From positions 29,872 to 93,871 of IMG/VR virus record IMGVR_UViG_3300042897_000742: 64,000 bases of DNA; one strand, written 5' to 3'. The notes beneath the pieces were generated by a model, which had not been told where the DNA came from, searched no databases, and saw only the letters and a program-made list of their open reading frames with translations. Of this stretch, positions 9,410 to 49,392 are shown in pieces. The DNA comes from a virus. A program made the position numbers and the translations under genes. Positions within the stretch are counted from its first letter, which is position 1; the number at the start of each line of letters is the position of its first letter.

Positions 9410-12400
9410 TGGCAAATATCATACCAGGTGTACCAACGCCAAGTGATCCAACATGTGCTCTTACTATTTGCGGTAGAATTATAGCACAAGTAGATTGCAT
9501 TAAGTATATAATGCAAGGTACATCTGCATGTATTGATATTCAGTTTTTTGGCGCAGATGGTCAACCTCTTGACCTAGATCGTTTTTGCGAAATGCAAATT
9601 CAATTAACGAATGAATTTGAATGCGTTGTTGCAAATTTTTGGTATCCTTCTGTTCCAACTGGATCAAAGGGATTTGATATTGAGATTTTACAATACACTA
9701 CGACAGGTGGCAATATAGTAAATAAGGGTCTTCTTAGAATATGTTTATCAACTAACTGTACTCTTACTTCACCTGGTTCTGTTTTTGCAGAAATCATATT
9801 AAAAGAATGTTTACTTACTGGTGTTGAACAAATTATAACAGGTGTTCCTACACCACCTGAAGCAAACGGGGAAACCTTTGGTATTCCTTGTCTTCAGGTT
9901 GCAAATATACTTAATTCAAAAATCGCAAAGAATGGTGGTGCAGGGGGTTGTTTTCCTGGATACATTCCACCTCAACCAGGCAGTAGTGGAATAGGATATG
10001 CAATAGGATCAACTGGAGCAACAGGTATTCACGGGGCATCCGGTTTACAAGGAGAAGTAGGTTTAACCGGATCTACTGGACAACAAGGATTTATTGGTTC
10101 AACTGGGCTACAAGGGAATCAGGGGAATCAAGGTTTTACTGGATCAACTGGACCACAAGGATTTACTGGATCAACTGGACCACAGGGTGCAGGTGGAACA
10201 TTAGGTTATTGGGGTAGTTTCTGGAGCGCGCAAACACAACCTAATCCGGTACCAAATGGCGCTAATGCAATGACATTCAATAATACTGATCCTGATTCTA
10301 ATGGTGTTTCTATCCAGAATAATTCACAACTTACATTTGCATACGACGGTGTTTATAATATTCAGTTTTCTGCCCAGCTTGATAGAGTAGCTGGTCCTGC
10401 ATCTGCAAATGAAGTAGATATTTGGTTTTCAAAGAATGGCGTTCCAATACCTGATTCTAATACACATGTCGTTGTTGCAGGAATTACTTCTGCATCTAAA
10501 GAAGTAGCTGCATGGAATTATCAACTTAAACTTAATGCAGGAGATTACATTGAATTATACTGGTCATGTCCTAACACAAATGTAGAACTTATCTATGTTC
10601 CTGCTCAAGTAAGTCCTCTTCGCCCTGGTGTACCTTCTGTTATTCTTACTGCACAGCAGGTAACATATACTCAAACTGGTGCAACGGGCGCAACTGGTTC
10701 ACAAGGCGATCAAGGTTTTACCGGTTCAACTGGAACACAAGGTTTTACCGGTTCAACTGGAACACAAGGTTTTACCGGTTCAACTGGTCCTCAAGGTGCA
10801 GGCGGTACCTTAGGTTATTGGGGTAGTTTTTGGAGTACACAAACTCAACTTAACCCTGTGGCAGATGGGGCTAATGCAATGACCTTTAATAATACAGACC
10901 CAGACTCAAATGGTGTTTCTATTCAAAATAATTCACAACTTACATTTGGATATGATGGTGTTTATAACATACAATTTTCTGCTCAACTTGATAGGGTGGC
11001 TGGTACGGCATCTGCAAACGAGGTAGACATTTGGTTTGCAAAAAATGGAATAGACATCCCAGATTCCAATACTCATGTTGTTGTTGCTGGAATTACTTCT
11101 GCATCTAAAGAAGTAGCTGCATGGAACTATCAACTTAAACTAAATGCGGGGGACTACATTGAACTCTATTGGTCATGTCCTAATACCAACGTTGAACTTA
11201 TTTATATTGCACCAGAAGTTAGTCCAGCGCGACCTGGTGTACCTTCTGCAATTTTAACTGCTCAACAAGTAACATACACACAGGTCGGTGGAACTGGTGC
11301 AACTGGTATACAAGGCAACCAGGGTGATCAAGGTTTTATTGGAGCAACTGGAGCACAAGGTAACCAAGGTGATCAGGGGTTCATTGGAGCAACGGGTTTT
11401 GATGGAGCAACTGGAGCACAAGGTAACCAAGGTGATCAGGGGTTCATTGGAGCAACGGGTTTTGATGGAGCAACGGGTTTTGATGGAGCAACTGGAGCAC
11501 AAGGTAATCAAGGATTTATTGGGGCAACGGGTTTTGATGGAGCAACTGGAGCACAAGGTAATCAAGGTTTTATTGGAGCAACTGGGACACAAGGTAATCA
11601 AGGATTTATTGGTGCAACTGGTTTTGATGGATCAACCGGCCCACAAGGCGCGGGCGGCACCATTGGTTATTATGGATCTTTCTATAGCACAGCAATCCAA
11701 ACCAATGCAGGTGCCTCATCTGCTAATGTAATTACATATAATAACACTGACATAAGTAATGGTGTAAGTATAGTTTCAAATTCACAAATTACTATCGCTA
11801 ATCCAGGTATCTATAATATACAGTTTTCTGCACAACTTAACAAAACAGATAGCGGTGTTGATGAAGCCTATATTTGGTTATCAAGAAATGGTAGTAATGT
11901 TCCGGAGTCCAACACTATTGTTGAACTAGATAAGAATAATATGAAACAGGTTGCTGCATGGAATTTCCTTGTAGAGACCACCAACCCAAATGAATATTTT
12001 GAACTCTATTGGCACAGTACCGATTTAGATATAAGACTCTATGCTGAGCCTGGTTCAACTGGACCAACTAAACCTGCGATTCCTTCTGTTATCCTAACAG
12101 TTCAACAAGTTACATATACTCAAATAGGAGCATCTGGTTTAACTGGTGCAACTGGACCTGCTACTTCACTTTATTTACTTGAAGCGTATGCAAATGTGAC
12201 ATACACTTTACCAGGTGGTTTTACTGATGATACCTGTAGATATAGTATTGTGAATAATACGGTAAATGTACCAAGTGGTTGGTTTAATACATCAACATAT
12301 AGATTTACACCTCAAAAGGTAGGTTATTGGGAAATCACCGCATCATACGATATTTATAGAAATAGTGAAGCAAGTATGGCGATTAGGAAAAACGGTGGAG

Positions 12401-21062: not shown

Positions 21063-21081
21063 GGGACTTCGGTCCCTTTTT
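21061..21081 (+). terminator. Rho-independent terminator with UUCG tetraloop
   Basis: AAGGGAC-TTCG-GTCCCTT-TTT. Confidence 0.9.
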
Positions 21082-21125
21082 ATTTCTCTATGTCATGATG
21101 AATAAATAAAAAAAGATATCCTAAC

Positions 21126-22007
21126 ATGAAATTTATTAAAACGTTTGTTAACTTCTTGACAGAGAAGAAGGAGGAAAAGGATTTTGAGGATAAAATAAAA
21201 GGTCATGGCTATTTTAAGGGAATATCTACTTCAACCGCCCGTAAGAAAATGGATCAGATGAAAGATCAGGCCGCTAAACCTGACGATGATCCTTCTGCTT
21301 ATAAAGAATTACCAGGCGACACTAAAGGAAAGAAACTTCTAAAACCTTCTAAACATACTAAGAATTATCAGGATCTTTATGCTGATGATGAAAAGGAAAC
21401 AAAAAATGAATCCATCATTAATTGGGAACTTTATCAACAACTAAAAGGTGGATCTACGAAAATTGAAAAAGAGCTTAAATATCAGATAGCTGAAAAGTAC
21501 ATAACTATAACAGCAACCGGACTTAATAAAGATGATAAAGCTGCTCTTATCAAAATGGGTGCAAATGTTACTATGATGGGCCCAGGATGGTATATAAATC
21601 TTAAAGATACTGATAAGAAAAAGATATTGGATTATCTTAATAAAGAAGGTATCGAAGTAAATGAAAACATTAATGAAGAATCTGGTGGAGATCGTTCACC
21701 GATTGATAATGATGCAATTGAAACTGGGTTAAAGAAAAAGAGTGAAGAAACTGGAGTTCCTCTTCCACTCCTTAGAATCGTAATGCGTCGTGGTATGGCT
21801 GCATGGAAGAGTGGTCATCGTCCAGGTGCAGGACAAGAACAGTGGGGTTATGCAAGAGTTAATTCATTTTTAACCCAAGCACCAGGTACTTGGGGTCGTC
21901 CTATTAAAGATCCTAAGAAAGGTGCAAAGGATGCCTATGGTGCTGATGCCGATGTTGCACAAGAAGTAATTAAAGGTGGACATGATAAAAATTTAAAGAA
22001 AGGATAA
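21126..22007 (+). CDS. CTS-leader multidomain protein; C-terminal DUF5824-like domain
   Basis: MKFIKTFVNFLTE; KNES and NENINEE linkers; RRGMAAWKSGHRPG...QWGYARVNSF. Confidence 0.7.
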   Translation: MKFIKTFVNFLTEKKEEKDFEDKIKGHGYFKGISTSTARKKMDQMKDQAAKPDDDPSAYKELPGDTKGKKLLKPSKHTKNYQDLYADDEKETKNESIINWELYQQLKGGSTKIEKELKYQIAEKYITITATGLNKDDKAALIKMGANVTMMGPGWYINLKDTDKKKILDYLNKEGIEVNENINEESGGDRSPIDNDAIETGLKKKSEETGVPLPLLRIVMRRGMAAWKSGHRPGAGQEQWGYARVNSFLTQAPGTWGRPIKDPKKGAKDAYGADADVAQEVIKGGHDKNLKKG

Positions 22008-22453
22008 TGAAAACTATAAAACTTTTTGAAGAATTTAAAGAAGCAACTTCTTGTCCGGTACCAACTAAAGATTTAGAAGTTAATACCAAAAATCGTAATA
22101 GAGCAATTCATGCAGACTTTATTGATTATGGTCCTCTTAATGTAGATGAACCTGCTGGGTATTGGGAACATCTCGCAGATCATTGGAAAACTAGTGTAGA
22201 AGCTGCTAAGAAATCAACGTGTGGAAATTGTGTTGCATTTGATATAGCTCCTCGTATGTTAGATTGCATGCCAGGTGAAATTAGCGATGAAGATGGAAAG
22301 TTAGGTTATTGTTGGATGCATCATTTCAAATGTCATTCTGCACGTAGCTGTTATACTTGGGCAAAAGGCGGTCCTATAACTGATGATAAAGTATCATATG
22401 ATTGGCAAGAAAGAAATCTTGATGCTGCAAATAATCCAAACCCTATTAAGTAA
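22007..22453 (+). CDS. CTS-leader Cys/His-rich protein
   Basis: MKTIKLFEEFKE; CGNC..F and GYCWMHHFKCHSARSC. Confidence 0.7.
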   Translation: MKTIKLFEEFKEATSCPVPTKDLEVNTKNRNRAIHADFIDYGPLNVDEPAGYWEHLADHWKTSVEAAKKSTCGNCVAFDIAPRMLDCMPGEISDEDGKLGYCWMHHFKCHSARSCYTWAKGGPITDDKVSYDWQERNLDAANNPNPIK

Positions 22454-22462
22454 TTGTTAAAT

Positions 22463-23005
22463 ATGAAATTTGTAAAAAACTTTAATGACTATCATAAGGT
22501 ATCTGAAGGACTCAAGTATCATATAGAAAATGGTTTGGATTTAACCAACAGTGTTTATCGCTTAGGTTCAGATTCATATACCAATCTATTTGAAGAAGTA
22601 AAACAGTATTGGGATAAAGGTAATATCATTCTAAACGGAAAAAGCGGTTGGATGGCAAAAAACCTTGAAGTTGGAAAACCTGCTGTTTATAATGACCGTA
22701 AAACTGGAAGAACTACCAAAGTAAAACTCGATTCACCGGAAAGAGGTGGAAATAAAAAGTTTATCGTTTATCGTAATACAGGTCGTACTGATGAAAACGG
22801 TAATGTAATTGCAAAAAAGATTGAATGGGGTGATCCGAACCTTACTGTAAAGAATGATGATCCAGGCAGAGCCGCATCATTCTGGGCAAGACACGGTTGT
22901 GATAAAGCTGAAAAAATGGATCCTAATAAGGCAGGTTTCTGGGCATGCTATGGTCCAAGTCTGTTCGGGAAGCAGTTAGGTTTAAGTAGTACTGAACCTT
23001 GGTAA
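22463..23005 (+). CDS. CTS-leader conserved phage protein (ARHxC motif)
   Basis: MKFVKNFNDYHKVSE; WGDP...SFWARHGCD...AGFWAC. Confidence 0.7.
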   Translation: MKFVKNFNDYHKVSEGLKYHIENGLDLTNSVYRLGSDSYTNLFEEVKQYWDKGNIILNGKSGWMAKNLEVGKPAVYNDRKTGRTTKVKLDSPERGGNKKFIVYRNTGRTDENGNVIAKKIEWGDPNLTVKNDDPGRAASFWARHGCDKAEKMDPNKAGFWACYGPSLFGKQLGLSSTEPW

Positions 23006-23034
23006 ATAAATAAACAAATAATATAACAAAAGAT

Positions 23035-24390
23035 ATGAAACATATTCCTAATTATTCTGAATTTAAGAAAATTAATGAAGCCTTTGCTACTTCAATGACA
23101 ACGGTTCAGACTGATGCTAAATTAAATCAAGCGGCAGATATCATTACAAATTTCTTAAATAAGAAAACCGGTAAAGCATTTAAGAAATTCCCATTCCTAG
23201 TATATTCAGGTGGAACTCCAGGTATTATGCTTTATAGCGATAAAGATAATTCTGCTGTTAGAATCAGTGGCGGTTCAGGTCGTTTTCCTGGTGTTGTTGG
23301 TCAATTAGATTACTTCTCTGATGGAGCTTCTCATACGGCTGATTTTTCTGTTAGTAGTGAAACATTTCCAATCGTTGCATTACTTAATGAATTTGTTAAA
23401 TTAGTTAATGAACCTTCATATGCATCAGAAGTAGAATCATTAACAGAATCTACATTAAATGAAGCAACTAAATCGTTCTCTCCAGCTGAACAAAAAACAA
23501 TCTTAAGCAGATTGGATAAAGGAGAAAGCGGTGCTGCTATTGCAAGAGATATGGGAGTATCGTATGGTATGATTTTACAACTTAAGAGAAATGTAAGTGT
23601 ACCTGAAGATGAGAGTCCTGCTGTAAAGGCAAATGAATTAACATTACAAGATAAGGTTAAACTATTAGATGAAACGCTTGATGACCTTTATGAAATTACA
23701 AGAAGACTTGCCGCTGGCGCATTTACTTCTTTAATGGTTTCAGGTAGAGCAGGTACTGGTAAAACATTCTCCGTTACTAAAGCCTTAAAGGATGAAGGAC
23801 TTATTGAGGATGATGACTTTATCGTTGTATCTGGTGCAGTATCAGTTATTATGATGTATAAGAAAATGTATCAATATAGAAACCAGGTTCTGGTATTTGA
23901 TGACTGTGATGCTGTATTCCGCGATGAGAATGGCCGTAACATCTTAAAGGCTGCCCTTGATACTAAAAAGACTAGAAGAATCTCTTATCTTAAGAAGAGC
24001 GGATTAGTATTTGATCCTAAGGATTTTGAAAATAATCCAGAGGGTGAATTTAATGCAATTGAAAATGGATTAGTTCCTGCATATTTTGATTTTGCCGGTA
24101 GAGTGGTATTTATTTCAAACCTACCTAAAGATAAGGCTGACCCGGATGGGGCTATTCGTTCAAGATCAATCTTAATTGATGTTAATCCTGATGATATGAC
24201 TCTAATGGAAAGAATTAAAATTCTTTTACCGGATCTTGAACCAAGAGATATGCCTCTCAAAGATAAAGAAGAAATTTTTGAATTTATGAAACGTGCAAAA
24301 GACGTCTCAATGAGAACATTTGTTAAGGCTGCTGGTTTCAAACAGGCAGGTTTAAACAATTGGGAAAGAATGGCACAAAGATATCTATAA
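23035..24390 (+). CDS. CTS-leader protein with HTH and AAA+ ATPase domains
   Basis: MKHIPNYSEFKKINE; LTESTLNE linker; HTH SGAAIARDMGVSY; GRAGTGKT, VFDDCD and AIRSR. Confidence 0.8.
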   Translation: MKHIPNYSEFKKINEAFATSMTTVQTDAKLNQAADIITNFLNKKTGKAFKKFPFLVYSGGTPGIMLYSDKDNSAVRISGGSGRFPGVVGQLDYFSDGASHTADFSVSSETFPIVALLNEFVKLVNEPSYASEVESLTESTLNEATKSFSPAEQKTILSRLDKGESGAAIARDMGVSYGMILQLKRNVSVPEDESPAVKANELTLQDKVKLLDETLDDLYEITRRLAAGAFTSLMVSGRAGTGKTFSVTKALKDEGLIEDDDFIVVSGAVSVIMMYKKMYQYRNQVLVFDDCDAVFRDENGRNILKAALDTKKTRRISYLKKSGLVFDPKDFENNPEGEFNAIENGLVPAYFDFAGRVVFISNLPKDKADPDGAIRSRSILIDVNPDDMTLMERIKILLPDLEPRDMPLKDKEEIFEFMKRAKDVSMRTFVKAAGFKQAGLNNWERMAQRYL

Positions 24391-24393
24391 TAT

Positions 24394-25839
24394 ATGAAAC
24401 ACTTTAAATCATATAGTGAGTTTAAACTCCAGGAAAAGTACGAAGGCGTAGAGGTTAGTACTAGACGCTACGAAAGAGTACATGGTAAAAAACCACGTGG
24501 AAATGGAATGTGGGCATTTTACCTTGATCCAGTTGGTGATGAACCTATTTTTACTCCATCTGCTATGAATTATGCCGATGCCGTTAAATGGGCATCTCTT
24601 AAAGCCAGAAACATGGGTAAGAAAGTTATCTATGTTGGTGAATCACTTAATGAAGCATTAAAGATTGGTGATTTTGTTCGTTATAAAAAGGATAATGACT
24701 TTACTGGTGGAAAGATTACAGATCTTAAAAGTGGAAATGCAATTGTAAAAAATTGGGATGGATCCGAATCAGAATTTAAGCTAGGTGATTTAGAATATGT
24801 TAAATCATGGAATGAAGCCGAAAAGAGAGGTGATAATAAAATTTACTTCAATAAAATGAGCGATATTGACCATACTAGACTTGTTAAATGGATGGGAAAA
24901 AATTTAGATAGCGATTATAACGATTATAAATTTACAAAAGGTGGGAAAACAAGCACAGACACTCACACCCTAGACACTACTAAATTATCGGAAACCGAAC
25001 TTAAAGATTTAATCCACTACCTGGAAAGTCAAAGATATAAATTCTATACCGAAATTTGGTTACCTGCTTACGAAAGTGTTAATGAACGCGAATACACCGA
25101 TGAACAAAGAATGGATATGGCTGATAAAGGCCTAGCCTTACCTGATGGCAGCTTTCCAATTAAAGACTTAGAGGATCTTAAAAATGCTATTCAGGCATAC
25201 GGCCGCTCAAAGGATCAATCCGCTACTGCTAAATTTATTGTTAAGAGAGCAAAAGCTTTAAGTGCTGAGGATCTTATTCCTGATACCGAGGATTTTCAAA
25301 AAGCTTTAAAGGAAACTATTACTGAAGGTAATGCATTTCTTGCTGCTCGTGCAAAAGCCATCGAAGAAGATGCTGAAGAGTTTGAATTTAACGGTAAGAA
25401 ATATCCTGTTCTAAACAGACCTAAGAAACTTAATGAAGAGCTTTCTGATAATGATGCCTATAAGATTATAGATATAGGTTCAAAGTTTTCTAAGGAAGTA
25501 GGCGGTCATTTACTTGCAACTCAAACATTTGATACAGCAAACGATTTTGTTGATTATCTTCTCTCTGAATTTATTCCAAAGAAGGATCATCCAAAATTCT
25601 TAAAATCTGTTAAATCTCTAATGGAATCAGATTCATCAGAGGAAGATACCGACGAAGAATACATTGATCCAGCTACTTTACCACAATCGGTAAAGGACTA
25701 TGTTTCTTCTAATTATTCAGATGCTAAAATAACTAAAGCTGAAAGTGATGAAGATGGTTTTGAAGTATACTTAAGCAATGGATTAGAGCTCGTATTTGGA
25801 CCTGACGAAAAATTCATTAAAGCCGTAAAAGAATCTTAA
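24394..25839 (+). CDS. CTS-leader polyprotein-like multidomain protein with C-terminal PepSY-like domain
   Basis: MKHFKSYSEFKLQE; about 7 modules separated by hydrophobic-x-E linkers. Confidence 0.75.
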   Translation: MKHFKSYSEFKLQEKYEGVEVSTRRYERVHGKKPRGNGMWAFYLDPVGDEPIFTPSAMNYADAVKWASLKARNMGKKVIYVGESLNEALKIGDFVRYKKDNDFTGGKITDLKSGNAIVKNWDGSESEFKLGDLEYVKSWNEAEKRGDNKIYFNKMSDIDHTRLVKWMGKNLDSDYNDYKFTKGGKTSTDTHTLDTTKLSETELKDLIHYLESQRYKFYTEIWLPAYESVNEREYTDEQRMDMADKGLALPDGSFPIKDLEDLKNAIQAYGRSKDQSATAKFIVKRAKALSAEDLIPDTEDFQKALKETITEGNAFLAARAKAIEEDAEEFEFNGKKYPVLNRPKKLNEELSDNDAYKIIDIGSKFSKEVGGHLLATQTFDTANDFVDYLLSEFIPKKDHPKFLKSVKSLMESDSSEEDTDEEYIDPATLPQSVKDYVSSNYSDAKITKAESDEDGFEVYLSNGLELVFGPDEKFIKAVKES

Positions 25840-25841
25840 AG

Positions 25842-26435
25842 ATGAAATACTTTAAAAAATATAATGAATTTGTTACTGAAAAGATTGCATATCCTGACGG
25901 GGATAAATCTACAGGTGATAAGATTCTTGATAAATTTGCTAAATTGATTAATAGTCCATCTAGTACTGTTAATATTATGTCATGGGCGGTTCAGGGTAGA
26001 AGTATACCTTTTATGACTGGTACCGAATCATTTTCTGTAAATGCTAATCCATCGCAAGACTATTTTTGGATTAATACATCAAAGGGAAAATTTAGACTAC
26101 CTAAAAAAGATATCAAAAAGGCAGAAGAACTTTATGATGAGGTAGAATCTATTATACAGACAGGTAAGCCTAAAAGGAGTGTTGAAGAATCTCTTAATGA
26201 ATCTACTTCACTAAAGAATGCAATCGCTATTCTTAAAAAGGAAAACATTATGGCATATCCTAACCCAGAAGATTTGGCAAAAGCAATTCACAAACACTAT
26301 AAAGAAATTACAGGTAATAAATATGAAGATGCCGTTGAAATGTCAATGAATGATAAGGTAGCTGATATCGTATCATATTTTAAGATTGATGGCTCTGATT
26401 TTATGTCAGCCTGGGATAAAACAATAAAAGACTAA
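25842..26435 (+). CDS. CTS-leader two-domain protein
   Basis: MKYFKKYNEFVTE; VEESLNES linker. Confidence 0.7.
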   Translation: MKYFKKYNEFVTEKIAYPDGDKSTGDKILDKFAKLINSPSSTVNIMSWAVQGRSIPFMTGTESFSVNANPSQDYFWINTSKGKFRLPKKDIKKAEELYDEVESIIQTGKPKRSVEESLNESTSLKNAIAILKKENIMAYPNPEDLAKAIHKHYKEITGNKYEDAVEMSMNDKVADIVSYFKIDGSDFMSAWDKTIKD

Positions 26436-26441
26436 AAAATT

Positions 26442-26858
26442 ATGATTACATCATTTAATAATTTCGTAAACGAAAACTTTGGAGAAGCCCAAGACATTTA
26501 TGGTTCATTCTTCGTGGCTATGTTAGGCCTTAGAGATCAGGCTCATATTTTCCATTGGCAAACGGAATCATTTGCACAGCATAGCGCATTCGGTGGATTT
26601 TATGATTCATATCTCGACCTTGTTGATAAACTATCAGAATCATTAATTGGCATTCATGGAAGACCTTCTTTTATGGAGGCTGAAATTGAGTTATATGGTT
26701 ACAGTGAAGAAAATATAGCAATGTTTTTAGAAAAAGCATATGCCCTATTCTTAGGTCAAGGTACTGAATTGGCCGGAGGTAATACCGAAATCAAGAATAT
26801 CATCGATGAGATTATTGCTGAACTTGATAAATTAAAGTATCTTCTTACTTTAAAGTAA
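26442..26858 (+). CDS. Ferritin/Dps-like (DUF5856-like) protein with CTS-like leader
   Basis: HIFHWQT...H.A....YD......D...E and KLKYLLTL; leader MITSFNNFVNE. Confidence 0.75.
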   Translation: MITSFNNFVNENFGEAQDIYGSFFVAMLGLRDQAHIFHWQTESFAQHSAFGGFYDSYLDLVDKLSESLIGIHGRPSFMEAEIELYGYSEENIAMFLEKAYALFLGQGTELAGGNTEIKNIIDEIIAELDKLKYLLTLK

Positions 26859-27160
26859 TGAAATACATTAAGGCATACGAATCATTCTTATTTGAAGGAA
26901 AACCTAAAGGTGCTCCTGATTGGCATGATAGTGATGCACCAGATGCGGAGGGTCGTTTTAAAGAATTAAATCCTAAAGATCTTGCTGCGTGGTTAATTAA
27001 GACAAGAAAGGGCGATCTTAAGAGAATAAGTGGTTCGCTAACTCAACAGGTTGTTTTTAACCGTAATGATGATCCTGCATATGCAGATAAAATGGAAAAG
27101 ACTCGTAAAGAAGTTTATAAACAATTAGGGAGAGAAGACCTATTAAATAAAAAGGATTAG
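26858..27160 (+). CDS. CTS-leader small protein
   Basis: MKYIKAYESFLFE. Confidence 0.7.
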   Translation: MKYIKAYESFLFEGKPKGAPDWHDSDAPDAEGRFKELNPKDLAAWLIKTRKGDLKRISGSLTQQVVFNRNDDPAYADKMEKTRKEVYKQLGREDLLNKKD

Positions 27161-28119: not shown

Positions 28120-30144
28120 ATGGGCGAAATATATCCGGAAGATAATATAGAAAGAGAACCAATCAGACAGCAAAAGATGAAAAAACCATCTTTGCAGGTT
28201 CTAGAAGCATACGGGACAAATATCACTAAACTTGCCTTAGAAGGTAGGTTAGATCCTGTTGTTGGTAGAGAAGAAGAAATACTTAGAGTTATTCAAATAT
28301 TAGGAAGGCGTAGAAAGAATAATCCTGTACTTGTTGGAGAACCTGGTGTTGGTAAAACTGCAATCGTTGAAGGTTTGGCAATGAGAATGATTGAAGGTAA
28401 TGTACCTGCTTCATTACAAGGCAAAGTCATATATACATTAGAATTAACCACAATAGTTGCAGGTACAAAATACCGTGGGCAATTTGAAGAAAGAATGAAA
28501 GCCATCGTTGATGAATTGGTGGCTAATCCACATGTGATTATTTTTATTGATGAACTTCATACTCTTGTTGGTGCTGGTGGAACTTCAGGTTCTTTGGATG
28601 CATCTAACATTATTAAGCCTGCATTGGCTCGTGGAGAAATCCGATGTATCGGTGCAACTACATTTGATGAGTTCAGAGAAAATATTGAACAGGATGGCGC
28701 ATTAGATCGCAGATTCCAAAAGGTAGTTATTGAACCTGCCTCTACTGATGAAACAATTACAATCCTAACTAATATTAAACATAAGTATGAATCATTCCAT
28801 AATGTTTCATACACAGATGAAATTGTATCTCTAATTGTTAAATTGGCAGATCAGTATATCATGGAGAGATTCCTCCCAGATAAGGCTGTGGATATTTTGG
28901 ATGAGGTTGGTTCTTTTAAACATTTAAGTAATATGAAAGTTCCTAAAAAGATTAAAAGCTTAGAGGAAAAACTTCATAAAAAGGATGCAGATAAAAATGA
29001 AGCAGTAGGAAGACAGGATTATGAAGCTGCTGCTCGTGAACGAGATATCTGTATTCAACTTAAGGATCAAATTCAAAAAGAATATGCAATATGGAAAAAA
29101 GAAATTGCAGAAAACAGACTTGAGATAACAACTGATGATGTTCTTAAAGTGGTATCAAAAGGAACTGGTATTCCTTTAGAAAAAATTAATGATAAAGAAA
29201 ATAAAAATCTGATAGGTCTTAATTCCCACCTTGCTTCCAGGGTTATTGGACAAAGAGAAGCTATTGATAAAATCTCTATCACAATCCAAAGAAATCGTGT
29301 AGGGATTAGAAAGAGAGATCGCACAGTAGGTAACTTTATTTTCTTAGGACCAACTGGAGTTGGTAAAACTCAATTGGCTAAAGAAATTGCTAACTATATG
29401 TATAGTTCAGAAGACAGTCTTATCAGAATAGACATGTCAGAGTATATGGAGCCTCATTCTGTATCTAAATTAATTGGATCTCCTCCTGGATATGTTGGTC
29501 ACGAATCTGGTGGGTTTCTAACGGAGCAGGTAAAGAGAAAGCCACACTCTGTTATATTATTTGATGAAGTTGAAAAAGCTCATCCAGAGGTGTTTAATGT
29601 GCTCTTACAAATGTTAGATGATGGCCGTTTAACCGATTCTCTTGGTAGAACTATAGATTTTAGAAATTGTTTGGTAATCTTAACATCAAATACAGGAAGC
29701 CGTAAACTTGAGGAATTTGGTGATGGGATTGGATTCCGACCATCCACTACAATTGCTGAAAAGTCTCATGCCGAAAAGGAGGTTTTAAAGAAGGCTCTTA
29801 ATCATAAATTTTCACCGGAATTCTTAAACAGAATTGATGAAATCATTATCTTTAATAAGTTAAGTAAGGATGACGTATTTTATATTTTGAATAATGAATG
29901 TAATGAACTCAGGGATAACCTATTTGAAGTTGGTGAATATGATTTTAAGATAACCAAAGCTGCAAAGGAGATAATCATTAATGAAGGTTATGATCCTAAG
30001 TTTGGGGCTCGTCCATTAAAGAGAACATTAGAAAGACTAATTGAAAATCCTATCGCCGAAATGATTCTTAAAGGCGAATTAAAACCAGGCGATACAATTA
30101 AAGTTGGTGTAGCCAAAGAATTAATAAAGATTGAAAAAGGTTAA
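28120..30144 (+). CDS. clpC: ClpC-like AAA+ unfoldase lacking the N-terminal Clp-repeat domain
   Basis: Two AAA modules (GEPGVGKT, GPTGVGKT), UVR-like middle region, IGF loop and GARPL. Confidence 0.85.
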   Translation: MGEIYPEDNIEREPIRQQKMKKPSLQVLEAYGTNITKLALEGRLDPVVGREEEILRVIQILGRRRKNNPVLVGEPGVGKTAIVEGLAMRMIEGNVPASLQGKVIYTLELTTIVAGTKYRGQFEERMKAIVDELVANPHVIIFIDELHTLVGAGGTSGSLDASNIIKPALARGEIRCIGATTFDEFRENIEQDGALDRRFQKVVIEPASTDETITILTNIKHKYESFHNVSYTDEIVSLIVKLADQYIMERFLPDKAVDILDEVGSFKHLSNMKVPKKIKSLEEKLHKKDADKNEAVGRQDYEAAARERDICIQLKDQIQKEYAIWKKEIAENRLEITTDDVLKVVSKGTGIPLEKINDKENKNLIGLNSHLASRVIGQREAIDKISITIQRNRVGIRKRDRTVGNFIFLGPTGVGKTQLAKEIANYMYSSEDSLIRIDMSEYMEPHSVSKLIGSPPGYVGHESGGFLTEQVKRKPHSVILFDEVEKAHPEVFNVLLQMLDDGRLTDSLGRTIDFRNCLVILTSNTGSRKLEEFGDGIGFRPSTTIAEKSHAEKEVLKKALNHKFSPEFLNRIDEIIIFNKLSKDDVFYILNNECNELRDNLFEVGEYDFKITKAAKEIIINEGYDPKFGARPLKRTLERLIENPIAEMILKGELKPGDTIKVGVAKELIKIEKG

Positions 30145-45841: not shown

Positions 45842-46189
45842 ATGAATACAGTTCTTATTATTTTATTGATTGCAGCTGTTATTGCAACAATATATACTAC
45901 GTTTAGTGGTAAAAAGAGTTCAACATTAGTAGGATATTCCGAACCACATAAACCAAGCGGTATCTCTGGGTTTAAACCGAGCGGTACATCTGGTATCTCT
46001 GGAACTAAACCGAGCGGTACATCTGGTATCTCTGGAACTAAACCAAAGCCAAAACCGAGCGGTACATCTGGTATCTCTGGAACTAAACCAAAGCCAAAAC
46101 CGAGCGGTACATCTGGTATTAAAGGTGTTAAAAAACCTGGAAGACCAAAGAAGACGAGTGGCAATAGCGGAATTAAAGGAATTAAATAA
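45842..46189 (+). CDS. Membrane-anchored protein with PSGTSGISGTK repeats
   Basis: N-terminal TM; near-exact DNA tandem repeats at about 45950-46120. Confidence 0.7.
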   Translation: MNTVLIILLIAAVIATIYTTFSGKKSSTLVGYSEPHKPSGISGFKPSGTSGISGTKPSGTSGISGTKPKPKPSGTSGISGTKPKPKPSGTSGIKGVKKPGRPKKTSGNSGIKGIK

Positions 46190-46575
46190 TGAAAAGCTAT
46201 AAAGACTTCATATCAGAATCATTTGTACAAAATGTAGTACAAAACGATAAGGATCCAAACTTTGATGGTGCAGATCCTTCCTCTATTGAAATTCATAATA
46301 GGGGTATCGGTGGTGTAAATTCTCTACAAGGTCATCGTGATCAAATTGTAAGACTTTTGGAACAAATGCTTGCTGATGCTAAAATGGCTCAAAAGAACCA
46401 TAAATTAGCTCATTACTCTATTGCAAAGATTTTATCTTTGGCTGATCCTGATCGTATAACAGGTGTGTTACTCACTTACCTAAAGAACCATCAGACTGCA
46501 ATTGAAGAATTAGAAGCAATTCGTAGAAAAGGTGGAAGTGGAGCCGGAAAATCAATTCCTAAAGGATTGATCTAA
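46189..46575 (+). CDS. CTS-leader protein
   Basis: MKSYKDFISE, closest match to the T4 leader MKTYQEFIAE. Confidence 0.7.
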   Translation: MKSYKDFISESFVQNVVQNDKDPNFDGADPSSIEIHNRGIGGVNSLQGHRDQIVRLLEQMLADAKMAQKNHKLAHYSIAKILSLADPDRITGVLLTYLKNHQTAIEELEAIRRKGGSGAGKSIPKGLI

Positions 46576-46590
46576 AAATAAAATTACATA

Positions 46591-47361
46591 ATGGCATTAA
46601 GATTTAACAGCATTCAAGAATACGGTGAGTATATCTATAATGAATGTATTAAGCAAAACAAACAAAAAGACGTTTGTAATAGCGGAAAAGGTGGTACAAA
46701 AACAAAAGTAACTGATTCCGATCCTGATGGTTTTAGTTTAACTTATTCTTCAAGTAACCTAGATGCTAAATCACAGGAATACTTAAACACTCACACGGTG
46801 ATAAGTAAGGCACCACCGCAAAATGCACCAGCCCATATAGAAATTGTTGAAGGAGAAATCTGGAAGCAAACTATTCATAAGTATGATAAAAATGTTTATG
46901 CAAGCAAAACCGTAGTTGATAATTCAACTGACTTTTCTGTTTCTGCTGATGCATCTTATAAAGAAGCTAATGTTAGTGCAAATTATGAACAAGTTTATTC
47001 TGAAGAAGATACTAATGTAAGTGAAGAAGTTTCAAAAGAAGCATCACAATATGATTTAGAATTTCATGGTATTCAAGGAAAGCATTATGCTGTCGATTTT
47101 TATACTAATAAGTACACATGTTCTGACCGACCTGTATTAGAGATTACCTATACATTTGAGTCAATAACATTTAGGGCAGTATGTGATTATTCTGATGGCG
47201 CTGCTCTTCATTGGAATAACGAACACTATCATAAAACATATAACATTGCATCTCTAGGACTTGACCCGGTTGTTACTATTCCGCAAGTTGTAGCATTTGA
47301 TGTTAATTATGATAACCCATGGCCTAGCTATACAATAACAAACATAGAAGATAACGCATGA
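46591..47361 (+). CDS. Beta-rich hypothetical protein (possible aerolysin/ETX-like fold)
   Basis: Ser/Thr-rich alternating segment DFSVSADASYKEANVSANYEQVYS. Confidence 0.5.
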   Translation: MALRFNSIQEYGEYIYNECIKQNKQKDVCNSGKGGTKTKVTDSDPDGFSLTYSSSNLDAKSQEYLNTHTVISKAPPQNAPAHIEIVEGEIWKQTIHKYDKNVYASKTVVDNSTDFSVSADASYKEANVSANYEQVYSEEDTNVSEEVSKEASQYDLEFHGIQGKHYAVDFYTNKYTCSDRPVLEITYTFESITFRAVCDYSDGAALHWNNEHYHKTYNIASLGLDPVVTIPQVVAFDVNYDNPWPSYTITNIEDNA

Positions 47362-47945
47362 AACATATCAGAGAATACGAAGAATTTCTAAATGAAAATA
47401 CAAACGCAAGGCGATTCCAAAATAAAGGAAAGCTGCGTTATAGCGATCAATTTAGCGGTAATGTTAGTCTTTCAAAAACAATTGGTACTGAACTAGGATT
47501 TGATCCAAAGAAAGGATCATCGGGTGTTGGATTCGATAATGTATCTATGTATGATAATGAATCGAGTAAAACTATCGTAGGTGATGCACTTACTGGTAAA
47601 TACACATACGATGATCTCGTTAAACTTGCAAAAGAATGGTATGGCAAGAATGAATCTATGGTTAGTGAAGCTGCAAGTGTACCTTCAAACATTATGGATT
47701 TTGCAAAGAGAAAAGGTTCTTATGCAGTTAGTCTTGTAAAGAAGGCTGCAACATGGGCAGAAAAAGCCGGTAAAAGAATATCTGGTGGTACTGCAATCGG
47801 AAAGAATTATGACACTATCATTCTTGATATGAAACACCAAGGATCTGAGATCTACATTAACCTTAATAATGAAACGATTGAACTATACGGTGAAGAGGTA
47901 ACTGATGCTAAATCATTTGCCAAAGTACTTCAAGATAACGAATAA
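47358..47945 (+). CDS. CTS-leader two-domain protein
   Basis: MKHIREYEEFLNE; KNESMVSE linker. Confidence 0.75.
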   Translation: MKHIREYEEFLNENTNARRFQNKGKLRYSDQFSGNVSLSKTIGTELGFDPKKGSSGVGFDNVSMYDNESSKTIVGDALTGKYTYDDLVKLAKEWYGKNESMVSEAASVPSNIMDFAKRKGSYAVSLVKKAATWAEKAGKRISGGTAIGKNYDTIILDMKHQGSEIYINLNNETIELYGEEVTDAKSFAKVLQDNE

Positions 47946-47955
47946 ATAATTTACT

Positions 47956-48258
47956 ATGAAACATATAAAACTTCTTGAAGAATTCGTTAATGAAAATATG
48001 ATTAATGAATCTGAGACATTTGATGGATTAAGATCTAAATTTGAGAAAAATCCTTACGGTATAGGAGCTCAATTGTCGTATTACGAAGAAGGGAAATACG
48101 GATATCCCGATAGCTTAGTATTTAAGCATGACGAAAAATATAGAAGAGACATGATAATACCTAAATTGAAGTCAATGGGGGTTCCTTCTAAGAATATTAT
48201 AAAATCCGTAGAAAAAGGTTATAAATATCCTTTTGTAGTTACAGTAACAAAATTTTAA
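47956..48258 (+). CDS. CTS-leader protein
   Basis: MKHIKLLEEFVNENMINE. Confidence 0.75.
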   Translation: MKHIKLLEEFVNENMINESETFDGLRSKFEKNPYGIGAQLSYYEEGKYGYPDSLVFKHDEKYRRDMIIPKLKSMGVPSKNIIKSVEKGYKYPFVVTVTKF

Positions 48259-48264
48259 TTAATT

Positions 48265-49392
48265 ATGAGGCATATAAAACTGTTTGAAGAATTTATAAGT
48301 GAAGCCGCTCGTATTGGTAATAGCTCTTGGAGTAATATTCTCAGAGACCTAAAATATGATGGCTGGGACATAAAGGGTAATTCTGCTTATAAATCATATG
48401 AAGGTGATAGCGGTGACGAAAGAAAACTTGAACTTTCTAATTATGGTGATGAAGAAGTTGAATGGACCATTTATGATGGAAGAGGTAAGGAGATTAACTC
48501 AGGTTCATTTGATGCAGAAGGCTTAAGTGCCGGTGAATTGGATAGCGAAGTTTGGGGCAACATCGAAGAATCTGTTAGTGAAGCAAAAGATATCTCAATT
48601 AAAGACTATAAAGTTGGAGATGTTATTTCTTTTAAGGATGGTGAAGACTGGAAAGTAACAAAGGTTAAGTATGATAAACTCATGGTTAAGCCTCATAATG
48701 AAAAAGCCAAAAAAGCAAATACAAGCATAGAGATTGATATTGACTTAGACTACCTTAAAAATAATCTAAAGGAATCTTTTATTAATGAAGGTCGTACAAT
48801 TGAAAAGATTGAAAAAGACAGAACTAAAGTAGTTAATGATATGGCTGAAATTGTTACTAATTGGAAAGCCGCTAAAGAATCTGGTGATAAAAAAGCCGAG
48901 GCATCATTTTTACAAAGACTTAAGGATCTCACTGCCCAAAAGAAAGGCCTAGAGAAAGAGCTTAACATGGCAATCGCAGGTAAAGATCGTGATGTTGAAT
49001 TAGTTATCTCAGAAAGTGTTATGTCAGAAATTGACTTATTAGCAAGAGAAGCCAAAAACTTTAAAGATTTTCTTAAAGCATTTAAGACTGATAATCGTTA
49101 TAAAGGTTTAGATACTGCAGGTGATACTAAGGAATTTGAAGATTGGTTAAAATCTATATATGATAACGCTAAGAACGAAAGTATGAATGAAGCTGAAGAT
49201 GTTAAGAAAGGTATTCATGATCATTGGAAAGAATTATATAATGAAGACTTTATTTCCACATATCCTAAAGTAGCAAAGATTCTTAAGAATCGTCAAAACG
49301 TTGATCGTCGCGAATTGGCAAGAATCTGGGATGAAACCTATGGCGAAGACTTTAAAGAAAAGTACGCTAAGATCTGGGATGTTTTAGATTAA
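48265..49392 (+). CDS. CTS-leader polyprotein-like protein (5 modules)
   Basis: MRHIKLFEEFISE; linkers EESVSE, KESFINE, ISESVMSE and NESMNE. Confidence 0.75.
   Translation: MRHIKLFEEFISEAARIGNSSWSNILRDLKYDGWDIKGNSAYKSYEGDSGDERKLELSNYGDEEVEWTIYDGRGKEINSGSFDAEGLSAGELDSEVWGNIEESVSEAKDISIKDYKVGDVISFKDGEDWKVTKVKYDKLMVKPHNEKAKKANTSIEIDIDLDYLKNNLKESFINEGRTIEKIEKDRTKVVNDMAEIVTNWKAAKESGDKKAEASFLQRLKDLTAQKKGLEKELNMAIAGKDRDVELVISESVMSEIDLLAREAKNFKDFLKAFKTDNRYKGLDTAGDTKEFEDWLKSIYDNAKNESMNEAEDVKKGIHDHWKELYNEDFISTYPKVAKILKNRQNVDRRELARIWDETYGEDFKEKYAKIWDVLD

Follow-up and report, generated by a model that had tools for sequence, protein, structure and literature searches.

Seven modules behind one leader

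We analyzed a 64,000-nucleotide stretch of viral DNA (the window; positions 29,872 to 93,871 of IMG/VR record IMGVR_UViG_3300042897_000742) and, within it, an open reading frame (ORF) of 481 amino acids (aa) that encodes a short leader followed by seven modules. The ORF lies at window positions 24394..25839, and it, its modules, and the gene cassette around it are all on the plus strand. A preliminary description, made from the letters alone, had proposed that the head protease of the phage separates these modules after a single leader has carried them into the head. The source record is 93.9 kb long, the window being its last 64 kb, and was judged ~34% complete; the source is thus a fragment of a phage of roughly 250–300 kb. 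It is an uncultured lake phage with a G+C content of ~34% in this fragment, and its T4-type head is read from sister records. The target ORF is the fifth of eight consecutive leader-bearing genes that form the cassette (21126..27160). Its region had no megablast match among cultured phages, PHROGs and NCBIfam returned no family for the protein, and no paralogue of the seven modules occurs elsewhere on the 93.9-kb record.

The leader, MKHFKSYSEFKLQE (residues 1–14; 24394..24435), was delimited by the pattern of the leader-bearing family and stands where it had first been placed (MKHFKSYSEFKLQE14). At least 15 ORFs in the window begin with a shared peptide of this kind (M-K-x-[IF]-K-x-[FY]-x-E-F-x-x-E), and the family consensus is M-K-[YH]-[IF]-K-[TS]-x-x-[EDQ]-F-[IL]-N-E↓A (↓ marks a leader end, joint, or putative cut). 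The peptide is like the capsid-targeting sequence (CTS) of T4, MKTYQEFIAE (10.1101/2021.01.19.427310), in which residues 4 and 7 serve targeting and residues 8 and 10 serve processing (PMC9026906). The leader logo holds the same core, [FY]-x-[EQD]-F-[LI]-x-E, with both the targeting aromatics and the hydrophobic-x-Glu end present; this is a pattern match, the peptide being too short for demonstrable homology. The T4 leader has 10 residues, whereas those here have 13–14; the motif here prefers Asn at P2. The window's closest leader to the T4 CTS heads the ORF at 46189–46575, which starts MKSYKDFISE↓S: it is of equal length and shares 6/10 residues (M1, K2, Y4, F7, I8, and E10), including all of positions 4, 7, 8, and 10.

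Behind the leader, six joints were found exactly where they had been claimed (LNE87, WNE141, VNE231, ITE311, LNE348, and LME411), and the seven-module division that they produce agrees with boundaries mapped by homology. M1 (residues 15–87, YERVHGKKPRGNGMWAF; 24436..24654) is an alpha/beta domain that closes with GESLNE87↓A, aligns end to end in ~60 relatives, and is modeled with a predicted local distance difference test score (pLDDT) of 83–94. M2 (residues 88–141; 24655..24816; ending KSWNE141↓A), delimited by homology (including P0247) and by a fold match, is a Tudor/KOW/SH3-like five-stranded barrel, in keeping with the SH3/KOW-like barrel suspected from its sequence. Tudor/KOW/SH3 structures match over exactly residues 88–140 (Z 8.5–8.7, root-mean-square deviation 1.3–1.6 Å), spanning 52–53 of 57 residues (6wau), and KOW domains reach Z 7.8; the likeness is one of fold only and not of sequence family. 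M3 (residues 142–231; 24817..25086; ending WLPAYESVNE231↓R), delimited by stand-alone relatives and by a second model described below, is an alpha/beta domain in that model, with the order beta-alpha-beta-beta-alpha-beta and the segment DHTRLVKWMG. M4 (residues 232–311; 25087..25326) is a helical domain marked by ALPDGSFPI, with 221 hits in varied contexts and the end ALKETITE311↓G. M5 (residues 312–348, GNAFLAARAKAIEEDAEEFEFNGKKYPV; 25327..25437; ending KKLNE348↓E), also found with another leader class, consists of a helix and a hairpin; L024 has tandem M5-like repeats (EGNAFGAARAEAIAKG..YPV). M6 (residues 349–411; 25438..25626; ending KSLME411↓S), which varies in its position relative to M4, is helical in the AlphaFold model, as had been predicted.

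The last module, M7 (residues 412–481; 25627..25836), comprises an acidic spacer and a PepSY_like domain. The PepSY-like assignment was borne out by Pfam PF11396 at residues 420–476 (35.1 bits vs. a gathering threshold of 28.3, E 1.7e-8). In Foldseek comparisons, M7 is 46–48% identical to the Bacteroides periplasmic proteins 3db7 and 3due (root-mean-square deviation 1.3–1.4 Å), and its remaining relatives begin with Bacteroidota-type lipoprotein signal peptides. The suggestion that M7 may be host-derived fits these nearest relatives, and the module is absent from the sister phages. Apart from PepSY_like, Pfam gave only a weak HAS-barrel hit on the target. The whole 481-residue model found nothing in the Protein Data Bank (PDB) at E≤0.001 by Foldseek, domain-level leads being limited to M2 and M7, and its BFVD structure hits were uninformative. 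These searches yielded no functional assignment for M1, M3, M4, M5, or M6.

M4 has relatives of another kind. It is 44–57% identical to a stretch close to the C-terminus of "capsid maturation protease" fusion genes in actinophages; these genes are giant (~1,550–1,630 aa) and, in Gordonia phage DalanDe (L036) and Microbacterium phage Cece (L037), immediately precede the major capsid gene. M4 also matches a "portal protein" gene in Caudovirales GX15bay. Judged by these matches, M4 may be a capsid- or scaffold-binding domain.

Modules are shuffled among relatives

We collected relatives by a word-indexed search (734) and by an exhaustive HMMER search (4,011). When the modules were searched singly, M1, M2, M4, M5, M6, and M7 aligned end to end in differently built proteins. 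A constant order among homologues would have spoken against separable modules, and no fixed order was found: modules are reordered, missing, or doubled, and M1, M3, and M4 each occur alone behind a leader of their own. P0002 reads leader-M1-X-M2-X-M4-M5-M6-M7, and P0003 reads leader-M1-M3′-M2-X-M4..M7, with M3′ ahead of M2. Shorter forms include P0012 (leader-M1-M4-M5-M6′-M7), P0022 (leader-M1-M4-M5-X), and P0034 (leader-M1-M4-M6), which is without M5, so that M6 directly follows M4. M6 stands ahead of M4 in P0070-74, and P0067 has M4 in two copies. Across this variation, M1 almost always leads and M4 often closes the string, while the modules between them vary. The stand-alone proteins are P0238 (90 aa; leader and M1 alone), five with leader and M3 (P0164, P0178, P0233, P0235, and P0251), and several with leader and M4, including P0129, P0139, and P0148.

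These stand-alone proteins allow a leader end and an internal joint to be compared ahead of the same module. Stand-alone M4 relatives read MKYFKTFDQLKESLNE↓REYSDKERKDMADKGLALPDGSFP (REYSD..ALPDGSFP), where the target reads ..WLPAYESVNE↓REYTDEQRMDMADKGLALPDGSFP (REYTD..ALPDGSFP). Similarly, stand-alone M3 relatives read MKHIHSFESFINE↓AQKG..IYFTKMSDADHTRLVKWMG (..DHTRLVKWMG), where the target reads ..EYVKSWNE↓AEKRGDNKIYFNKMSDIDHTRLVKWMG (AEKRG..DHTRLVKWMG). The internal joint (..ESVNE↓) is equivalent to the leader end (..ESLNE↓). The joint also persists when its surroundings change. In M3 relatives, the domain always closes with WLPAY-ES-x-[IL]-N-E, after which unrelated sequences or modules follow; upstream of M4, the context is unrelated from protein to protein (..AIETN, ..GKFIK, ..KWGLD, ..EGKLD) and closes with ESLNE, ESINE, or ESVNE.

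The joint motif is enriched at module boundaries

The preliminary description had read hydrophobic-x-E linkers as protease sites. In that loose form, the pattern is at chance: genome-wide, it occurs at 27.4 per 1000 aa in leader-bearing proteins and at 26.6 in others, and the target protein alone has 16 such sites. A narrower version of the claim held. The target has five hydrophobic-[N/T]-E sites where shuffling predicts 1.08 (P=0.003), and all five lie ≤4 residues from homology-derived boundaries that were mapped independently (P ~2e-5). In the leader-bearing set, shuffling predicts 0.3 sites of the form ES-hydrophobic-x-E, but there are six, a ninefold higher density than in other proteins (Fisher p=6e-4). 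With the methionine variant included, the target has six motif-conforming joints beyond the putative cut at its leader.

Relatives place their boundaries at the same points. Among 250 homologues, 74% of 674 end-points of ungapped high-scoring segment pairs fell within 6 residues of the seven proposed cuts, vs. 19% expected. In the interiors of 284 distinct module cores, we counted five motif sites in 17,677 residues (0.28 per 1000 aa, compared with 7.1 in whole proteins), a density that is not an independent sample because the cores are homologues of motif-free cores. Distinct 12-residue junctions before each module contained hydrophobic-x-E in 87–100% of cases and hydrophobic-[NTM]-E in 46–86%, vs. 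30% and 9% of random 12-mers from the same proteins; since homologous junctions are non-independent, these enrichments overstate the count of independent events.

The conservation is that of a peptide. Codons vary between leaders, and the Ser of the ES-x-N-E joints is encoded by TCA, TCT, TCG, TCC, and AGT, which draw on both the TCN and the AGY family. The constraint on leader and joint therefore lies on the peptide and not on a DNA element. A conserved DNA element, which we considered as an explanation for both, was ruled out by this codon variation.

Sister phages have recently exchanged modules at the joints

Apart from the target gene, the window from 14.1 to 35.8 kb is collinear with three IMG/VR contigs (L001-L003), at 89–92% nucleotide identity. 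Within the gene, homology breaks at window positions 24662, 25079, and 25627, corresponding to residues 89, 229, and 411, that is, to joints 87, 231, and 411. The sister gene encodes 492 aa and has three other modules in place of M2-M3, framed by ESVNE87↓, RESVNE161↓, ETSITE245↓, and NESLNE313↓. At its far end, the sister protein stops at ..KSLM, exactly where the target runs on through E411↓SDSS.. into M7. The breakpoints between sisters are at joints, and recombination has occurred there, whatever the protease does.

Sister phages encode a gp21-type protease and its putative cleavage motif

Head genes were read from related records. The collinear sisters G001 and G002 and the more distant G003 each encode a Peptidase_S77 domain (the T4 gp21 family; 55.9 bits vs. 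a cut-off of 27) together with a Gp23-type major capsid protein (MCP; 95 bits). In G002, the gene order is portal, a 576-aa protease–scaffold fusion, and a 571-aa MCP. Proteases of the gp21 type cut after Glu at L/I-x-E (PMC9026906). The MCP N-terminus M(YA)N(H)LINE↓AE is kept in G002, G003, and the 462-kb genome LR756500.1 despite differing first residues; in G002 and LR756500.1, the protease domain is immediately followed by RVNE↓[SA]YG, and the scaffold part holds AINE↓S, QINE↓S, and LVNE↓S. The x-N-E motif thus appears to stand where substrates of gp21-type proteases are normally cut, which is indirect but specific evidence. For the MCP, this site was placed without a tool alignment to T4 gp23, since a phmmer search of the sister MCP against PDB sequences returned no hit. 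LR756500.1 shares the head-gene motif and has none of the seven modules. By MCP similarity, the lineage groups with LR756500.1 (56%), the Lak megaphages (37%), and phages of Tenacibaculum, Chryseobacterium, and Flavobacterium, a neighborhood that fits a Bacteroidota host.

Two further features of the G002 protease fusion (L031:1435-3165) were seen. Its scaffold-like tail of ~400 aa carries many Y-[AS]-E-[YH]-[LVI]-[AGS]-E repeats and several x-N-E↓S sites, and the fusion contains a small Cys-rich insert, CEKCGEVHEGSC.

Two alternative explanations of the target are considered here. In the first, the shared N-terminus would be no capsid address at all: it might act in translation initiation or in the mRNA, or direct the protein elsewhere in the cell, the protein then being an ordinary intracellular multidomain protein. 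The cassette does lie among non-structural genes, and the T4 late promoter motif TATAAATA is not enriched in the window (9 sites vs. 10.5 expected). However, the leader is conserved at the amino-acid level while its codons vary, its core agrees with the T4 CTS at the functionally mapped positions (most fully in the ORF at 46189), its end recurs as the internal joint and in the MCP and protease substrates, and a matching protease family is present in the sister phages. We consider this explanation very improbable.

Alternatively, the target could be a scaffold- or inner-body-like protein whose string of modules is a long, multiply cut propeptide or a core component, comparable to T4 gp22/gp67/gp68 or to proteins of phiKZ and SPN3US, from which most pieces are expelled and at most one or two (e.g., M4 and M7) are kept. 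Multiple cuts in long propeptides are documented in SPN3US and phiKZ (PMC10052503; PMC9026906), the tendency of M1 to come first and M4 last around variable modules would suit such a protein, and the M4-like domains near the C-terminus of actinophage protease fusions upstream of the MCP gene suggest a role in assembly. Yet the modules are compact folds that also exist as stand-alone leader-bearing proteins, and a dedicated protease–scaffold fusion is already present. Moreover, the target-type gene of the sister record sits in a variable cassette ~55 kb from the head genes, and the gene has been swapped between ~90%-identical phages, which would be unusual for an essential scaffold. A scaffold role for the whole protein is, in our judgment, improbable.

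Most joints lie between predicted domains

We modeled the whole protein with AlphaFold2 from a 47-row alignment, in which parts of M3 were badly aligned, and built a second model of residues 81–239 from a clean alignment of that sub-range. The whole-protein model had a mean pLDDT of 74.6 and a predicted template modeling score of 0.31; this low global score alongside well-folded domains describes, in the model, beads without a fixed mutual arrangement. The pLDDT fell below 50 at residues 1–13 (the leader), 224–231 (joint 231), 342–348 (joint 348), and 414–421 (just past joint 411) and in parts of M3, and it dipped to 68 at joint 87, between M1 and M2. In the second model, M2 again formed a barrel, WNE141 lay within a short linking helix, and residues 229–239 were once more of low confidence or flexible. 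Five of the six joints fall between predicted domains, as linkers should, three of them (231, 348, and 411–421) at pLDDT <50; the exception is ITE311, which lies within a confident helix.

The helical joints would be accommodated if the target were a multidomain cargo cut only at its leader, with the joints as fusion relics, preferred in-frame recombination joints, or hinges and the modules remaining in one chain. Besides joint 311, short helices between domains, predicted with moderate confidence, contain joints 87 and 141, T4 internal proteins are likewise cut once, and the sister breakpoints reveal recombination at joints irrespective of any protease. But a relic would decay, whereas the joint peptide is conserved across varying codons from both Ser families, persists before modules that have diverged to 40–60% identity and behind unrelated upstream sequences, is nearly excluded from module interiors, and equals the motif at the canonical substrate sites of the protease. 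We regard cutting at the leader alone as unlikely, though it is an alternative to be taken seriously.

Other leader-bearing genes

A G+C-rich hairpin, gggacttcggtccc, followed by a T-run lies at window positions 21063–21090, just upstream of the first gene of the cassette, and is likely an intrinsic terminator that makes the cassette a separate transcription unit. The leader-bearing gene adjacent to the target on its upstream side (23035–24390) encodes 451 aa, part of which is an AAA-type ATPase (phrog_1250, E 9e-42); at residues 134–143, the double joint ESLTE↓STLNE↓A separates its N-terminal module from the helix-turn-helix/ATPase part. The leader-bearing genes at 26442–26858 and 21126–22007 carry DUF5856 (Dps/ferritin-like, phrog_858) and DUF5824, respectively. 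Two relatives of the target, P0054 and P0056, are labeled "DNA-binding ferritin-like protein" by JGI, which suggests that cassette members may fuse with one another.

A second group of leader-bearing genes lies at window positions 47358–49392. With internal joints KESFINE↓, NESMNE↓, and NMINE↓, these genes probably encode more polyproteins built by the same grammar. On other IMG/VR contigs (L014, L017, L023, L024, and L026), with the match near position 10001, a second leader class (MGSLKLQSFEDFANA.., MAKMNKISSFQTFSE..) heads proteins of 400–800 aa in which M5 follows NES-V-M-N-E↓.

A candidate cargo polyprotein

We observed directly that the protein is modular, that its joint is conserved and equivalent to the leader end, and that shuffling occurs exactly at joints; in sister phages, we also observed the protease family and the motif in its canonical substrates. 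On this basis, we lean, with somewhat better than even confidence, toward reading the target as a cargo polyprotein that a huge, T4-related phage directs to its capsid, that is cut at its joints, and whose modules are kept and injected. From the same material, we infer that the protein is targeted and cut and that its modules are retained and injected, as well as their functions. The 14-residue, CTS-like leader would bring the precursor into the prohead's scaffold core. There, a gp21-family (S77) prohead protease cutting after Glu would remove the leader and sever the hydrophobic-[N/T/M]-E joints (typically E-S-[LIV]-N-E). Up to seven folded modules of 4–10 kDa would be freed and kept in the head, IPI* of T4, at ~8.5 kDa, giving the scale, and would probably enter the host with the DNA. 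A single leader would in this way load multiple cargoes at a constant ratio. Since the same joint frames all modules, recombination at joints yields in-frame chimeras that would still be processable, and such recombination may be how relatives gain, lose, reorder, and swap modules.

Several observations weigh against the cargo polyprotein. T4 internal proteins are cut once only, at the CTS (10.1101/2021.01.19.427310). The target's own leader ends LQE↓K, whereas the family has x-N-E↓A. The source record, ~34% complete, has no head genes, and the protease is known only from sister records. ITE311 is inside a confident continuous helix (residues 299–324), and M4-M5-M6 mostly travel together; joint 311 may accordingly stay uncut. 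Finally, the homologous junctions behind the enrichment figures are statistically non-independent.

Relation to known systems

The closest parallel is with the T4 internal proteins IPI, IPII, IPIII, and Alt, which likewise carry a short aromatic leader followed by hydrophobic-x-Glu (PMC9026906; PMC3012670; 10.1101/2021.01.19.427310). They too are otherwise unrelated proteins united by the leader only, they come from a hypervariable cargo locus, and their lineage has a gp21-family (S77) protease and a gp23-type capsid. They differ in being single units cut once, whereas here one leader precedes seven modules with leader-end-like joints (ES-x-N-E), and thousands of environmental proteins contain these modules in shuffled form. 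In phiKZ, 201phi2-1, and SPN3US (PMC9026906, PMC10052503, PMC5694885), a diverged gp21-like protease also cleaves after Glu at a three-residue motif, and many head-internal proteins are processed, with some precursors cut at several sites. Those extra cuts, at the motif S/A-x-E, chop long propeptides that mostly leave the head, in contrast to the target, where the segments between sites are folded domains that occur independently.

Polyvalent proteins (Iyer et al. 2017, PMC5512222) are mosaics of 2–15 shuffled domains that evolve by mix and match; it is predicted that they are packaged and reach the host along with the DNA, and processing into pieces has been proposed for some (PMC5512222). 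The target shares with them the combination of several shuffled domains in one phage polypeptide. They are, however, large, rich in enzymatic conflict domains, and often provided with their own peptidase or with MuF/portal fusions, whereas Pfam, PHROGs, and NCBIfam detected no enzymatic, conflict, peptidase, or MuF/portal domain in the target. Its modules measure 37–90 residues, and their separation would fall to the prohead protease, acting in trans on a joint that is uniform and stands behind a CTS. RNA virus and retrovirus polyproteins offer a likeness of strategy, in that a single translated chain has protease sites of one kind between its functional units. There is no homology with these, and in the present case the putative cutting would take place inside the prohead, by the protease that matures the capsid in a tailed dsDNA phage. 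A literature search turned up no account of small modules that are strung behind a CTS and linked by protease sites resembling a leader end.

Whether or not the joints are cut, seven unannotated phage domain families gain exact boundaries. If they are cut, the leader together with the hydrophobic-N-E rule would mark thousands of "hypothetical" proteins of uncultured aquatic phages as packaged and injected cargo. Such cargo would meet the host first, and its members would be prime candidates for anti-defense and take-over factors. Cutting would also mean that cargo evolves by cassette exchange between near-identical phages, and the T4 CTS, already a tool for packaging foreign proteins into capsids, would gain natural designs that hold several cargoes and have release sites built in. 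More tentatively, the leader and the ES-x-N-E joint might constitute a plug-and-play grammar of T4-related huge phages, in which the joint is both a processing site and a recombination joint; any small domain with the joint on its flanks could then move in frame into any gene with a leader, enter the head by means of that one leader, and be released by the prohead protease. We hold this broader idea to be possible but doubtful. If true, it would give these phages combinatorial libraries of injected mini-effectors, represented by thousands of metagenome proteins, as a phage counterpart of polymorphic toxin cassettes.

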